Source: a virus
Taxonomy: Duplodnaviria > Caudoviricetes
Strand: one strand, 5' to 3'
Length of the DNA: 37,178 bases
Virus record (IMG/VR): IMGVR_UViG_3300012855_000006
Span: 1-37,178 of that record
Notes under the pieces: generated by a model
The model's database searches: none
The model's input: only the letters and a program-made list of their open reading frames with translations
Told to the model about the DNA's origin: nothing
In this document: piece by piece, positions 26,142-32,742 of the stretch
How positions within the stretch are numbered: position 1 is the stretch's first letter
Layout of the letters: the number at the start of each line of letters is the position of its first letter
Made by a program: the position numbers and the translations under genes

Positions 26142-26183
26142 GATGGAAGGACTCCGCATTAAGGGGAAGTGAGGATGAGCGGG

Positions 26184-26432
26184 TCATGCGACTTCACTCT
26201 CAGACGAAGAGGGTCTGTCGATTTTCTCGGGCCAGCACGCGTTGGCAGGCCAGTTGTCACTGAACCACTGAAGTGCGCAGGCGGCGCGCTTGGTTTGAAG
26301 ATCGCCGCCATTCTCAAGCGCGCGAAGCTTCTTCGTGTCGCCAAACACTCGCCAGCTGACCGTAGTCAATCCGACCTTTTCGGCCTTCGCATAGACGCGC
26401 GATAACGACAGGAGGTTCTCGATGATGCTCAT
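26184..26432 (-). CDS. cro: Cro-like regulator
   Basis: TTVSWRVFGDTKKL..L..GGDL.T......QWFSDNWP....WP..I.RP, the alphaproteobacterial Cro-position family; divergent from cI. Alternative start at 26441. Confidence 0.8.
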   Translation of the reverse strand: MSIIENLLSLSRVYAKAEKVGLTTVSWRVFGDTKKLRALENGGDLQTKRAACALQWFSDNWPANACWPEKIDRPSSSESEVA

Positions 26433-26444
26433 GACGAACATAAA

Positions 26445-26484
26445 GCGGTATTTTTACCGCCTTCGTCAACGGTTTTATTACCGG
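26445..26484. promoter_or_regulatory. OR: two operators overlapping pR
   Basis: GCGGTATTTTTACCGC (26445-26460) and ACGGTTTTATTACCGG (26469-26484); minus-strand -35 TTGACG at 26464-26469. Confidence 0.85.
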
Positions 26485-26519
26485 TGGCGCATCATCTTTG
26501 CCAGTTAGATATTCCGCGC

Positions 26520-27281
26520 ATGATGAAAGACGTCCTTGAACGCATAGAACAACGCCTGAAGGCGGTCGGCAAAAGCGCGCAGGCAGCTTCTCTTGAGGCT
26601 GGCTTGAGCAAGGATGCGATCCGCAATATGCGCCGCGCCGCCAAAGAACCTACAAGGGCTGGCGTGTCCACGCGGACAATAGAACAGTTGGCTGACGTGC
26701 TCGATGCACCGGTCGGATGGCTGCTCACTGGTGACGGCCCTGGTCCGGGTGATGAACCTGTCAAACATAATCGCGATCACGGTAAAGCATTGATTGAGGT
26801 GCATTCTTCCGGCGAGATACCCGTCATTGGCGAAATCGCCGCCGGAGTTTGGCAAGAGGCAATCGAGATGCTTGATACCGGGGAATCCATTCCCTTCATC
26901 CCGCACCCCCGCTTCCCCAAGGATGCCCAGCTCGCTCTGCGCGTGCGCGGCGACAGCTGCGACCTCATCGCTCAGCCGGGCGCCTATGTGAACACCGTGC
27001 CGCTCGAAATGGCCCTGCCCGTTGACGGCCTGGAAGGCCTGCTCAGGGAGTTCGAGGCCAAGGGACGCGACCTGATTGTTGTGGCCGAACGCCTGCGGGG
27101 CGGCCTTGTTGAAGCCACGCTGAAGGCCCTGGTGCGCGATCGCGCCGGCTATGCGCTCGAGGCGCGCTCATCCAACCCCAAATGGGCCGGCAAGATCCCG
27201 CTGACCGATGACATGCTCCGCGACGGCGATGAAACCCGCATCGCCCGGGTCATGATCGGCAAGTACGAGGTGATGCTCTAG
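26520..27281 (+). CDS. cI: CI-like repressor (XRE HTH + S24 autopeptidase)
   Basis: HTH (SAQAASLEAGLSKDAIRNM...LADVLDAPVGWLLTG); IPVIGEIAAG cleavage-type site; ALRVRGDS (Ser) and EATLK (Lys). No SD, possibly leaderless. Confidence 0.92.
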   Translation: MMKDVLERIEQRLKAVGKSAQAASLEAGLSKDAIRNMRRAAKEPTRAGVSTRTIEQLADVLDAPVGWLLTGDGPGPGDEPVKHNRDHGKALIEVHSSGEIPVIGEIAAGVWQEAIEMLDTGESIPFIPHPRFPKDAQLALRVRGDSCDLIAQPGAYVNTVPLEMALPVDGLEGLLREFEAKGRDLIVVAERLRGGLVEATLKALVRDRAGYALEARSSNPKWAGKIPLTDDMLRDGDETRIARVMIGKYEVML

Positions 27282-27392
27282 GCGCCAACGCGGGAATATG
27301 TAAGCTTTTCTCACCCATTTGGGGAAAAGCTAGATAATGCGACACATCGACAACATCACGCGCATTTCATCCACGCCCTATTTACGACACGG

Positions 27393-27414
27393 TTGTTACC
27401 TTATATGTCAACAA
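27393..27414 (+). promoter_or_regulatory. Imperfect palindrome over the start codon of the RelE-like gene (autoregulatory operator)
   Basis: TTGTTACCTTATATGTCAACAA (TTGTT-N12-AACAA) contains the ATG at 27405. Confidence 0.55.
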
Positions 27415-27896
27415 TAGACAGAGCCATTCTTAGCGGCGCTCTGCTGGAATATCGGGTTGCGGGCGATGAAACCCGCGAGCAGGTGAGGCCGCTTTACTAT
27501 GCGCCTGAGTTCGAGGAATGGGTTGAGGATGAGGAACGCCTTGAAGCAAGAACACACTATCAGCATGGGTTGTCTTTAGCAGAACACATCGAGATCCGGC
27601 TTGCTGACTTGGTGTGCGAAAACCCGCTCCACCGCCATGGGATTTTTTCTGTGGATCCCACGTATCAGAGTGTCTGGAAGGTGTCGGCGGAAGGTGTTCG
27701 CCTGTTCGGCTGGTTCTGTAAGCCTGACATCTTCGTGCTCGTAACGGGCGCCTTGAAAACAGACCTCAAACAGAATGCTGACTTGCATCAGGACCACGTA
27801 ACTAGGGTCGCAAATTTTAGAAAGCGTCATGGCTTGGATGATGCCGTGATAAAGGGGGATGTCCGTGAAGTCCTTACGCAAAAACCGGTCGAATAG
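27405..27896 (+). CDS. Putative RelE/HigB-superfamily toxin
   Basis: VWKVSAEGVRLFGWFCKPDIFVLVTGALK resembles the RelE/Gp49 beta-sheet; upstream of an XRE HTH gene; lower GC. Confidence 0.55.
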   Translation: MSTIDRAILSGALLEYRVAGDETREQVRPLYYAPEFEEWVEDEERLEARTHYQHGLSLAEHIEIRLADLVCENPLHRHGIFSVDPTYQSVWKVSAEGVRLFGWFCKPDIFVLVTGALKTDLKQNADLHQDHVTRVANFRKRHGLDDAVIKGDVREVLTQKPVE

Positions 27897-28305
27897 ACGC
27901 GGAATGTTTCTTGGCCTGACAAGCTCGGTCGCGAGCCAGCTTCGGGAGGCCTTTGCCGAGCGCAGGCAGAACCACGGGGAAACCCAGGAAGACATCGCCG
28001 CGCTGCTGGGCGTGAACAGATCAGTCGTCAACCGGCGTCTGCGCTCAGGTTCAAACCTGACACTCGAAACCATTGCCGATATGGCGTGGGCGCTTGGCCG
28101 CGGCGTGAAGATCGACATCTATGATCCGGCAGAAAGAATCGGCTGCAACGAAAGACTTTACTTCTCCGAGCGCGCAACAGTGCCGCTCCCTTCCGAAGGA
28201 GTGTCTGAGGCCCGGGTTCAATTCAATAGTCGGCAAAATGCGCCTGCCCCAACGCGCAACAAGACCCAAATTGAGTTCAAACCGTCTCAACTGGTTCAGG
28301 CATGA
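27859..28305 (+). CDS. XRE-family HTH antitoxin-like protein (HigA-like) with a C-terminal extension
   Basis: TQEDIAALLGVNRSVVNRRLRSGSNLTLETIADMAWALG followed by about 55 aa of polar, low-structure tail. Confidence 0.8.
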   Translation: MSVKSLRKNRSNRRGMFLGLTSSVASQLREAFAERRQNHGETQEDIAALLGVNRSVVNRRLRSGSNLTLETIADMAWALGRGVKIDIYDPAERIGCNERLYFSERATVPLPSEGVSEARVQFNSRQNAPAPTRNKTQIEFKPSQLVQA

Positions 28306-28718
28306 CCATATCCGCTGAATACGTGATCTTGGCCGATTCCATACGTCGCGAGGATAATGGGAAGTTCATCTTCGTTGGCGTTTACACAGGCGATATCGTT
28401 CTGGATCATCCGCCTGCCCCGTTCAACATCGAGGCCTACATCAAGCTGCGGGCTGAAGTTCGGCAGCCGATGGAGTTCACGATCACCGTCCATCAGGCCT
28501 CACGGGAACAACCGATTGCGCGCCTGAGGGCTGATGCGTTCGAAACTCCGGGCGAAGGCCCTGTTTCCGGTGACCTGTTGCTGCCGGCCTTTGGCGTTCG
28601 GGCCGAGGGCCCCGATGAAATCTACTTCACGATGAAGGTGGGCGATGCCGAGGAAACGGAGATCGGGCGAACCAGGATTGTGCTCAAGGATGAGCCGGTG
28701 ACCGACCAGCACGACTGA
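28302..28718 (+). CDS. DUF6941-like beta-sandwich protein
   Basis: ILADSIRREDNGKFIFVGVY motif; ATGA-coupled to the HTH gene. Confidence 0.7.
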   Translation: MTISAEYVILADSIRREDNGKFIFVGVYTGDIVLDHPPAPFNIEAYIKLRAEVRQPMEFTITVHQASREQPIARLRADAFETPGEGPVSGDLLLPAFGVRAEGPDEIYFTMKVGDAEETEIGRTRIVLKDEPVTDQHD

Positions 28719-28719
28719 C

Positions 28720-28749
28720 AAAAACCCCGCCTCGGCGGGGTTTTCTTTT
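28720..28749. terminator. Bidirectional intrinsic terminator
   Basis: AAAAACCCCGC-CTCG-GCGGGGTTTTCTTTT between convergent operons. Confidence 0.9.
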
Positions 28750-28753
28750 GCCC

Positions 28754-29125
28754 CTACTCCGCCCCCTGCTCCACATGCACATGGCCTTCACGGACAAATC
28801 CTCGGCCGGTGGCGAGATCGACCGCGCCCCCTAGGACGCCGCCAAAGAGGATGTTTCCGAGCAGCGCTCCATTGGCCTCGGTTCGGAGGTCCACTTCAAC
28901 AGCTTCACCGTCAGCGAACGTGAAGGTGTATCCTTCCATGACCCGCATCTCGCTGCGCCTCACCTGACAAGGCGTCTGACAGAGCGTGCGCGGCCCTTGG
29001 CTGACATACGCGCCAGAGGGAGCTGACGTAAACAGCACAGCCTGCGAAGGCTCCATCGTGCCTTCAGACAGAGATGCGCAGCCACCCAGCGCGAGGGTGG
29101 CTGCAATCATACTAGCGCGGATCAT
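28754..29125 (-). CDS. Lipoprotein with PEGA-like domain and glycine-zipper
   Basis: Lipobox LGGC; TSAPSGA.V...QTPC; GNILFGGVLGGAVDLATG; ATGA-coupled. Confidence 0.8.
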   Translation of the reverse strand: MIRASMIAATLALGGCASLSEGTMEPSQAVLFTSAPSGAYVSQGPRTLCQTPCQVRRSEMRVMEGYTFTFADGEAVEVDLRTEANGALLGNILFGGVLGGAVDLATGRGFVREGHVHVEQGAE

Positions 29126-29634
29126 TCGAGGAAGTTGTCGATATTGGCCGCGTTCTGCATAGCGGCCTGCTCGTCGCATTCCAGGTCAAGCCGGGCCATC
29201 TCTGCGCAAACTCGATCAGCCTCACCCGAGCGGGTCATGCTGTCCCCCATCATCAGCCACATGTTCTTGTAGCGGCTCTGTTCATTGCGCTCTGCGCGGA
29301 GATAACGATCGCTGGCGTCAAAATAAAAGGTCGCCACTGTCGCATCCACGTCAGACCCGCCGGTGACCATGCCGACGAACGGGATGTATGTGCTGGCGTT
29401 CGTTCGCGCGCGAAGACTGGCATAGCTCCACATACGCTCGCCAGTCTCATCGATTACGGCCACTGCGTGCGGCTGCCCGAAGCTGCGGTGAACATCCATA
29501 ACGGTCGTTTCCCCAGCCTCGAGGGCGGTAAACCGACCGAAATCGTTCACGGCTTGCGTGCCCAGGTTTTGCGCACAGCCCGTCAGACCCAGCGCCGAGA
29601 CCGCAACCAATGCGGCATGTTTGATGGTGCTCAT
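29122..29634 (-). CDS. Lipoprotein, SmpA/OmlA (BamE)-like fold
   Basis: Lipobox LTGC; GETT..DV...FGQP...WSY...YIPFVG...FYFD. Confidence 0.75.
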   Translation of the reverse strand: MSTIKHAALVAVSALGLTGCAQNLGTQAVNDFGRFTALEAGETTVMDVHRSFGQPHAVAVIDETGERMWSYASLRARTNASTYIPFVGMVTGGSDVDATVATFYFDASDRYLRAERNEQSRYKNMWLMMGDSMTRSGEADRVCAEMARLDLECDEQAAMQNAANIDNFLE

Positions 29635-29661
29635 TCGCCCCTCCCTATGTGTGGCGCAACC

Positions 29662-29689
29662 ATTTTAGGCCCGACACCTCGCGCGCCAA
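29662..29689 (-). promoter_or_regulatory. Putative promoter of the lipoprotein operon
   Basis: TTGGCG-N16-TAAAAT on the minus strand, outside the OL operators; GGGAGG RBS follows. Confidence 0.45.
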
Positions 29690-29748
29690 GAGAATATCTA
29701 AAAACGCACTCACCGGAGGCATGAAATTCATTTAGAGAGAACCTGAGA

Positions 29749-29799
29749 GCGGTACTTTTACCGCTTTTTGTTGACGCGGTAATTTTACCGCTGCATAGT
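29749..29799 (+). promoter_or_regulatory. OL / pL: two operators and the early-left promoter
   Basis: GCGGTACTTTTACCGC (29749-29764) and GCGGTAATTTTACCGC (29776-29791); TTGACG-N17-CATAGT (29771-29799). Confidence 0.9.
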
Positions 29800-31517: not shown

Positions 31518-32431
31518 GCGATGACGCCCGCCTCAAGCGCCGGGTGCTGGACAAGCGCACCCGCCGCCATCGCCGCCCCCTGCCGTCTGTCGAGCGCGGC
31601 GTGCAGATTGCCGCCTATGCGGTTCACACCACCGGGCTGGCGCCGTCTGACCGGGTGTGTGAACTCGGCGTGGCCACGCTTGAGCTCGCACTGAAGGCGC
31701 GCGAAGGTTCCGCGCCCCGCGTCACCGATGTGCAGAGCGCCCTGGTTGATCCCGGCATGGCCATCGCTCCGGCGGCCACTGAAGTCCATGGCGTGACCGA
31801 CAAGATGGTGCACGGCCAGCCCTCCTTCACAACGGTCTGGTCCCGGCTGGGGCGGCCTGCGCCGTGGATCGCGGCGTACAATGCCGACTTCGCGCTGATG
31901 CATCTGCCCGTCAGCAAGGATCGCATGATCTGCACCCTCGCCTGTGCGCGGTTGCTGATGCCCGAGCAGCAGCACTTCAGTCTCGATGCGCTCGTGCAGG
32001 GGCTGGACCTCCCCCGGCCGGACAACGCCGCCACACGCGCCGCCATCGGGCCGGGCGCGGGGCTGGACGCGTGGAACGTGGCCTGGCTGGCCGAACGCCT
32101 CACCCGACTTGCGGCGCCCGAAGAGCTGGCCGCCATCACCGCACAGGCGCGGGAGGCTGCGCGCCAGCCCGTCGAGATCACCGGATCTACCCCCCTGCCT
32201 TTTGGCAAGCACCGGGGCCGGGCGCTGTCTGACGAACAGGGCGTGCCCACCCACTACGTGGCGTGGATCGCCGGCAACTACACCGGCCGTGATGCCGGCC
32301 AGTGGCGCGCCGCGGCCAGCAAGGAGCTGACCCGCCGCCACGCCGATCCCTGCGATCCGTCCGTTTACCAGATCGCCCGCGGGGCACAGCCCCGCACGGC
32401 AAGTGATGAACCCGGCGCACCCAGCGCATGA
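31514..32431 (+). CDS. DnaQ/DEDDh exonuclease-fold protein with a degenerate active site and a C-terminal PFGKH module
   Basis: TTGL...[15 protein letters not shown]...[28 protein letters not shown]; C-terminal LPFGKHRG..L....P..YVAW. Catalytic motifs are altered. Confidence 0.85.
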
Positions 32432-32457
32432 CCCAACCCCACCAGAAGGAACACCCC

Positions 32458-32742
32458 ATGGCCGACTTTGCAGCATCCGCGCCCGAGAAAGACCAATCCG
32501 ACGCCATCGGCGCCGCCGCCCGCGATCAGCTCCGCGCTCTGGTGGCGCGCATCGAGCGCCTGGAAGAAGACAAGGCCCAGGTCGCCGCTGAGATCAAGGA
32601 GGTCTACGCCGAGGCCAAGTCCAACGGCTATGACACCACCGTGCTCCGCAAGGTCATCGCCCTGCGCAAGCAGGACTCCCACGAACGGCAGGAAATGGAA
32701 GCCCTGCTTGAGCTGTATCTGGGCGCTGTGGGGGAGCACTGA
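32458..32742 (+). CDS. gapR: GapR-like (DUF2312) nucleoid-associated protein
   Basis: [17 protein letters not shown]...[24 protein letters not shown]...E.EALLELY; AAGGA RBS. Confidence 0.92.

Follow-up and report, generated by a model that had tools for sequence, protein, structure and literature searches.

We suggest that three overlapping genes behind the cI-like repressor gene of a lambdoid phage form a TAC-like toxin-antitoxin (TA) module with a DUF6941 protein in SecB's place, which would shield the tail of the antitoxin and release the toxin under phage attack. We put the probability of this combined reading at about 0.5. Its two parts, that DUF6941 protects the antitoxin via the extension and that the module restricts phages, each stand at somewhat better than even odds, and these odds are not independent of each other. 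If the reading is true, DUF6941 would represent a new kind of toxin-release switch that is thrown on attack by another phage.

The window, by which we mean the whole analysed stretch of 37,178 nt, is a virus record with a lambdoid layout comprising head, tail and replication genes, a cro-like gene and cI. The cI-like repressor gene (HTH and peptidase S24; 26523..27281, + strand) is the upstream neighbour of the triad, which consists of three + strand ORFs starting 123 nt after it. Gene 1 (27405..27896) encodes a 163-aa HigB/RelE-fold protein predicted to be an mRNase toxin, gene 2 (27859..28305) a 148-aa XRE HTH protein predicted to be the antitoxin and autorepressor, and gene 3 (28302..28718) a 138-aa DUF6941-like Ig-fold beta-sandwich predicted to be a tail-binding guard or sensor. 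Gene 2 overlaps gene 1 by 38 nt, and gene 3 overlaps gene 2 by ATGA. The GC contents of genes 1, 2 and 3 are 0.52, 0.57 and 0.58, respectively, compared with 0.626 for the window, and the triad falls within the lowest 2% of equal-sized windows. It is followed at 28721..28749 by an intrinsic terminator-like hairpin with an 11-bp perfect inverted repeat (28721-28744, -16.2 kcal/mol), a T-run on the 3' side and an A-run on the 5' side. A further hairpin lies between cI and gene 1 (27303..27331, + strand, -12.5 kcal/mol); cI is a possible source of read-through transcription into the toxin gene, and this hairpin might attenuate it. Paired palindromic operators of the form CGGTA..TTACCG are located beside cro and cI at 26446 and 26470 (span 26446-26483) and again at 29750 and 29777 (span 29750-29790), and the two pairs are likely the OR and OL sites. 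Because these operators flank it on both sides, the region 27282-29750 was taken as the cI-OL interval. The initial annotation had described three overlapping, lower-GC genes behind cI in this interval with a terminator of their own, and the coordinates, base composition, hairpin and operators agree with that description. The same interval contains two lipoprotein-like genes (phrog_6823 and phrog_3135; 28754-29634, - strand) that run towards the triad's terminator from the opposite side and represent candidate superinfection-exclusion cargo. Elsewhere in the window, a 104-aa gene (32428-32742, + strand) matches phrog_4212, and we take it to resemble the nucleoid protein GapR/DUF2312.

The start of gene 1 was placed at ATG 27405 and not at TTG 27393, because the family alignment begins with M-[AS]-T at this position. 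A full-library phmmer search gave 118 relatives at E<=0.001, mostly of 155-170 aa, and the family alignment, from which fragments and long forms were excluded, comprises 97 sequences. In this alignment R28 and R99 are invariant and a W-x-x-K/W-K motif precedes R99; these basic residues may be counterparts of RelE K52/K54/R61. There was no convincing Pfam match for any of the 97 aligned relatives, searches with the gene 1 sequence in Pfam, NCBIfam, PHROGs, PADLOC and the PDB (by profile) gave no meaningful match, and word-index searches recovered just 1 and 3 proteins. The AF2 model (pLDDT 95.5) had S. pneumoniae HigB as its top match (6af3; Z 9.0, rmsd 3.4, 105 aligned) and also matched HigB1 of the M. 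tuberculosis TAC (7nbu; Z 8.6, rmsd 3.1, 105 aligned). RelE-superfamily chains filled 22 of the first 23 rows, with RelE, YoeB and ParE coming after HigB, and Foldseek with the same model likewise ranked the RelE superfamily first, none of its matches reaching E<=0.001. A RelE/HigB-like gene 1 had been proposed from the sequence alone, with a missing RelE fold as grounds for abandoning it, and the model does have this fold. As judged from the model, gene 1 has the HigB/RelE fold and belongs to a family that has neither a name nor a Pfam model, and mRNase toxin activity is predicted for it. The window's copy forms a long branch, with a best identity of 28% to any surveyed locus, and no viral loci close to its gene 1 or its cI were found.

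Gene 2 matches Pfam HTH_3 above the cut-off. Its family shows a conserved G-x-N97, in which N97 is nearly invariant, followed by a variable S/T/P-rich tail that aligns poorly and has little sequence in common; the composition suggests that the tail is disordered, and no conserved aromatic motif like ChAD was seen in the tail alignment. In the window, the tail ends in Ala, and 59 residues lie beyond the last core strand and 70 after the HTH anchor, which agrees with the XRE HTH protein and C-terminal extension of about 55 aa noticed at the outset. Counted from the HTH anchor, the tail has a median length of 59 residues where DUF6941 is adjacent (range 41-91, n=83), 55 and 71 residues where DUF3467 occupies the third slot, 42-54 residues where DUF6941 is displaced, and is shortest, with 25 and 31 residues, in two loci without a third gene. 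These last two have lost most of the tail; they are independent loci, possibly from incomplete MAGs.

For gene 3 of the window no Pfam match was found. The ESM Atlas puts it with DUF6941 (28 of 30 matches, TM 0.79-0.81), and PF22091 (DUF6941) is matched by 59 of the 76 members of the gene 3 alignment. The protein is a divergent DUF6941-like member, with LADSIRREDNGK where the consensus reads FCDDIRxExxGK. The DUF6941-like label given earlier is thus suggested by the Atlas and by the relatives. The gene 3 model (pLDDT 94.4) consists of nine beta-strands without any helix, and its fold matches are generic Ig-like sandwiches in a flat list (best Z 8.7, rmsd 2.9, 106 aligned). SecB, by comparison, folds as a sheet of four strands lying on two helices. 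SecB was absent among the listed gene 3 fold matches, an absence that alone excludes nothing. On the evidence of the model, gene 3 encodes a DUF6941-like protein with an Ig-like fold built of beta-strands throughout and not SecB, as the initial annotation had supposed in calling it a non-SecB beta-sandwich. No long DUF6941 fusions (357-2000 aa) were found, which is weak evidence. A 223-aa protein (P0003), whose last 40 residues are identical to those of gene 3, lies on a 737-nt contig that is probably an assembly chimera.

The linkage of the three genes was surveyed from gene 1 in 24 viral loci (all those confirmed) and in 80 genome loci, the best of 125, found by motifs from larger-clade sub-alignments and not from the window's closest clade, whose alignment was too variable for such scans. 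All 80 named genome relatives are Alphaproteobacteria or unclassified proteobacteria. By iterated profiles and with the window included, gene 2 is present in 102 of 105 loci and gene 3 lies within 1.2 kb in 90 of 105. After removal of duplicates, DUF6941 is directly behind the pair in 85 of 100 loci, a count, like the others given here uncorrected for relatedness, that includes an apparently broken gene 2, an unreadable gene 2 and a toxin-antitoxin fusion. In the latter (L024:4848-5783), a 312-aa fusion ORF is followed by DUF6941 in two frames. In another 10 of the 100, DUF6941 is intact but separated from the pair by about 1.5 kb that include a curlin-like gene, and it is encoded on the other strand, an arrangement that apparently arose by inversion; the gene 2 tails of these ten loci are shortened and end mostly in D/E, and the palindrome described below is missing. 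Counting these Bradyrhizobium-type loci as gene 3 losses was rejected as wrong, DUF6941 being kept on the opposite strand. The other loci have DUF3467 in the third slot (2/100), a contig end (1/100) or no third gene (2/100); the genomes of the last two gave no DUF6941 match and are possibly incomplete. A quick tree puts the two DUF3467 swaps and the two losses on separate branches. An unbiased search found gene 1 in 8 of 401 genomes, six of them with triads already in the survey; in the remaining two, the locus ends just after gene 2 or gene 2 is continuous with a long, unrelated ORF. The initial annotation had made its case depend on gene 3 being linked to the pair, and with 85 adjacent and 10 nearby copies in 100 loci the triad proved to be conserved. 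We consider it highly probable that the three genes form a functional unit. The two loci with DUF3467 (L037:4859-5203 and L052:1778-2203, on separate branches) still have long tails, and DUF3467, for which no structural placement was found, is a possible third guard family.

The linkage was also followed from gene 3. Among 301 Alphaproteobacteria, gene 3 profile matches occurred in nine genomes and in 9/9 behind a TA pair, which was of the gene 1 family in eight (one being the centre genome, chosen as a carrier) and a HicA-HicB pair with a C-terminal antitoxin tail in one. A Pfam-model search of 401 Pseudomonadota gave three matches, namely the HicAB locus, one lone copy and a weak non-match. 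The reverse set comprised 160 viral and metagenome loci (80 of 88 and 80 of 426) and one genome locus, of which 133 had upstream room and 125 were distinct, some contigs being shared with the forward set. Upstream of these 125 DUF6941 genes were the gene 1 family (56), a second RelE-like and XRE pair (47), a Gp49-type pair (6), DUF4160 with an HTH protein (3), an XRE protein without a clustered toxin (1) or no pair (12). The second family is distinct from the gene 1 family (hhalign probability 3.8%) and weakly RelE-like by sequence, its ParE/Gp49 matches lying below the cut-off; its XRE protein has an N-terminal S/T-rich extension, and the antitoxins of DUF6941-linked pairs bear C- or N-terminal extensions. 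DUF6941 is common to at least five TA types: the gene 1 family, the second RelE-like family, Gp49-type, HicAB and DUF4160. The view first taken of the module was therefore too narrow, since DUF6941 accompanies at least five kinds of TA pair, and many of its copies lie on chromosomes, away from any cI. In the second family, a palindrome of about TATA(C/T)CTAGG(T/A)(C/A)GATATA lies just before the GTG or TTG toxin start (L130, L140, L142, L285 and kin). At L150:2552-2986, the gene ahead of DUF6941 encodes a 144-aa protein that belongs to no known family and has an S/T-rich terminus closing with AVA.

We then compared the triad with known systems. Like the triad, SecB TACs have the order toxin, antitoxin, third gene, a HigB-fold toxin (7nbu, Z 8.6), an HTH antitoxin with a low-complexity extension often ending in Ala, a third gene common to unrelated TA pairs and a place behind cI in lambdoid prophages. 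They differ from the triad, whose third protein is all-beta Ig-like DUF6941, whose toxin family has no Pfam model, in which no conserved aromatic ChAD motif was seen and which is known from sequences and models; in the second family, moreover, the extension is N-terminal. Because the third protein is not SecB, we regard the triad as TAC-like in architecture and not as a TAC member. The accessible text of Mets et al. (10.1101/2024.02.24.581848) reports VA or AA ClpXP degrons on TAC antitoxins and describes HigBAC of E. coli NT1F31, which lies in the rexAB slot and has a tail protein as trigger. HigBA-type type II TA systems also place the toxin first and an XRE HTH antitoxin second, with a palindrome at the operon start. 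Lambda rexAB shares the cI-OL slot with the triad, but its components are different and no relation in sequence or fold is expected. Full-text searches gave no paper on DUF6941 and nothing relevant on DUF3467, and the literature on TAC, three-gene TA systems, Ig-like or beta-sandwich partners and rexAB contained no such system, a listing in a supplementary table remaining possible. In their accessible parts, PMC11980606, PMC10865869, PMC13069673, PMC12894663, PMC8508860 and 10.64898/2026.10.19.760177 deal with SecB TACs, ptuXYZ and ParA-captured TA triads and not with a DUF6941 triad.

A 20-bp palindrome, TGTTACC-TTATAT-GTCAACA, covers the ATG of gene 1 at 27394..27413. In the window it is imperfect (5/7 pairs), and the family consensus, TGTTGAC-N6-G(G/T)CAACA, likewise lies over the toxin ATG; the palindrome over the first ATG seen earlier is therefore a family-wide motif. 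Its sequence makes it a likely operator for gene 2 that overlaps promoter-like elements. First, the left arm retains TTGAC even at the cost of symmetry, and TTGAY is present at -9 in 66 of 92 loci. Second, TA occurs at the -10 position (codons 5-6) in 34 of these 66 loci, compared with 6.5-9.3 expected from synonymous resampling (0 of 2000 resamplings reached 34), and in 0 of the 26 loci without TTGAY. Third, another TTG stands at -26/-25 in 23 TTGAY loci (no other offset has more than 3), and its partner would be the TA(T/A/C)ATG that spans the start codon. Either predicted promoter would start downstream of the toxin ATG. Finally, an SD-like motif precedes gene 1 in 8 of 92 loci and gene 2 in 58 of 90. 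In the window the promoter elements are degenerate, TTACCT replacing TTGACT. Since the promoter-like elements sit on the palindrome over the toxin ATG, the autoregulated transcript would probably skip the toxin. According to the accessible part of PMC11594946, P2 of E. coli hicAB is an antitoxin-repressed promoter that gives an antitoxin-only transcript in a toxin-first operon; the promoter of the triad differs from it in being sequence-predicted, and in lying over the toxin ATG, and it would also express the third gene. In two metatranscriptomes of one study, contigs begin at 27416 or 27417 and run to 28693, and one of them covers 27416-28693 in a single piece of 1281 nt with the flanks uncovered. 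These contigs are a weak hint, because contigs cannot show starts, a single study is concerned and one DNA run likewise breaks at 27403-27413; in RNA run X18 the flanks are covered as well.

Based on these observations, we propose the following mechanism. In the lysogen, the antitoxin would bind the toxin and repress at the palindrome. The palindrome promoter would supply antitoxin and DUF6941 with hardly any toxin or none at all, because its transcript would start inside gene 1, and the toxin would be supplied by weak read-through from upstream. The C-terminal Ala of the tail would mark the antitoxin for ClpXP unless it is covered by DUF6941. A protein of an incoming phage could then compete for DUF6941, whereupon the antitoxin would be lost, and the freed toxin would cleave mRNA and abort the infection. 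A wider generalization, to which we give somewhat less than even odds, is that DUF6941 is a second class of antitoxin-guarding chaperone, structurally unrelated to SecB, that also senses phages, that at least five TA families took it up independently and that it is exchangeable with DUF3467. This would be convergent chaperone-addicted immunity, with, in the gene 1 family, an operator-promoter on the toxin start codon that expresses antitoxin and guard only. The analysis offers a testable role for the uncharacterised DUF6941 and would widen the TAC principle beyond SecB, and, if true, a small Ig-fold sensor that can be joined to toxins of unrelated kinds would open a new way of finding phage triggers.

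DUF6941 could also be a direct sensor or co-antitoxin that binds the toxin, the TA core or a phage ligand and does not shield the tail, a reading we consider unlikely. It draws on the Ig-like domains known in defence proteins, among them the Pycsar AGS-C domain found among the gene 3 fold matches (Z 6.9, rank 50), on the RhoGDI/PDE6D-type ligand-binding sandwiches that head the Foldseek list for the gene 3 model, and on the little sequence that the tails share. However, neither the Pycsar nor the RhoGDI/PDE6D matches rise above background, and the partner toxins are of different families and folds (RelE-like, HicA, DUF4160), the extended antitoxin being the common feature.

The genomic setting bears on an alternative that we hold to be slightly less likely still, in which the three genes do cooperate, but to stabilise the prophage, as a selfish element or in a stress response, and play no part against phages. 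Among viral loci, 10 of 22 from the gene 1 family and 30 of 41 from the second family have cI as their immediate upstream neighbour (a few being HTH-only matches), so that the slot behind cI noticed in the window is a recurrent one. In contrast, only 2 of 77 genome loci have this placement. The other 75 genome loci are not behind cI and one clade is fixed beside curli genes; this placement, together with the Nitrobacteraceae curli cluster, fits a non-defence role. In these Nitrobacteraceae (L066, L075, L080, L082, L087, L093 and kin), the module sits in a chromosomal curli-like cluster, the labels being assigned by eye. Also in line with this alternative, HicAB2 of a P. putida prophage works as a TA system without a defence role, as far as the accessible part of PMC12894663 goes, and no PADLOC model matched genes 1 and 3 of the window, six other DUF6941 proteins or one more behind HicAB, bar one weak short match. 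Matches to PADLOC PDC-M64B/C were discarded as generic HTH matches. Against this alternative, the rexAB slot repeatedly contains DUF6941 triads of two unrelated kinds, including those of the cultured phages MD8 and MinM1, and defence activity is proven for a TAC in this slot (10.1101/2024.02.24.581848, accessible text). Prophages of alpha- and gammaproteobacteria commonly carry the module.

The end of the antitoxin bears on the direction in which DUF6941 would act. A C-terminal Ala is found in 33 of 83 antitoxins, 13 of them ending in AA, compared with 3 of the 101 toxins and 15 of the 86 third-gene products. The ATGA-type overlap of genes 2 and 3, present in 39 of 83 loci, was ruled out as the cause of this enrichment, since 18 of 44 antitoxins without the overlap also end in Ala, compared with 10.6% expected (kinship not corrected). 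The enrichment suggests ClpXP turnover of the antitoxin, which would also suit a protease adaptor or trigger, a pro-toxin role in which DUF6941 promotes loss of the antitoxin, and the tail being mostly gone in the two loci without a third gene fits either direction. The coupling of genes 2 and 3 by the ATGA-type overlap and the expected co-expression of gene 3 from the predicted toxin-skipping promoter both suit protection, and we regard the pro-toxin role as quite improbable. It is very improbable that an ordinary HigBA pair is merely accompanied by an independent DUF6941 gene, as the 12 of 125 DUF6941 loci without an adjacent pair might suggest, since at least seven of these 12 lone copies share, by eye, their upstream genes with the displaced ones and DUF6941 is kept in 95 of 100 loci, in proteins about 30% identical and with five TA types.

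Returning to the TAC-like reading, the occurrence of the module in cultured phages makes neutralisation, tail dependence and the trigger directly testable. Pseudomonas phage MD8 (KX198612.1) carries a second-family triad behind cI, and phage MinM1 carries a triad behind cI that is gene-1-like by eye. The MD8 pair, gp52/gp51, is HigB-HigA-like (PMC8508860), lies behind cI as in the window and is also followed by a third gene. It differs in belonging to the second RelE-like family, and the accessible part of that paper treats it as a two-gene TA system and leaves the third gene unmentioned. This third gene is annotated as 'putative Ig-domain containing protein' and matches DUF6941 relatives.

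Contigs of related prophages, from three small DNA runs of about 3 Mb, contain the triad without any base difference. In place of the two lipoprotein-like genes at 28754-29634 they have a different 896-nt block, and cro and the N-terminus of cI are swapped (window 26180-26760, 535 other bases) with the C-terminus of cI unchanged. These prophages are heteroimmune relatives.
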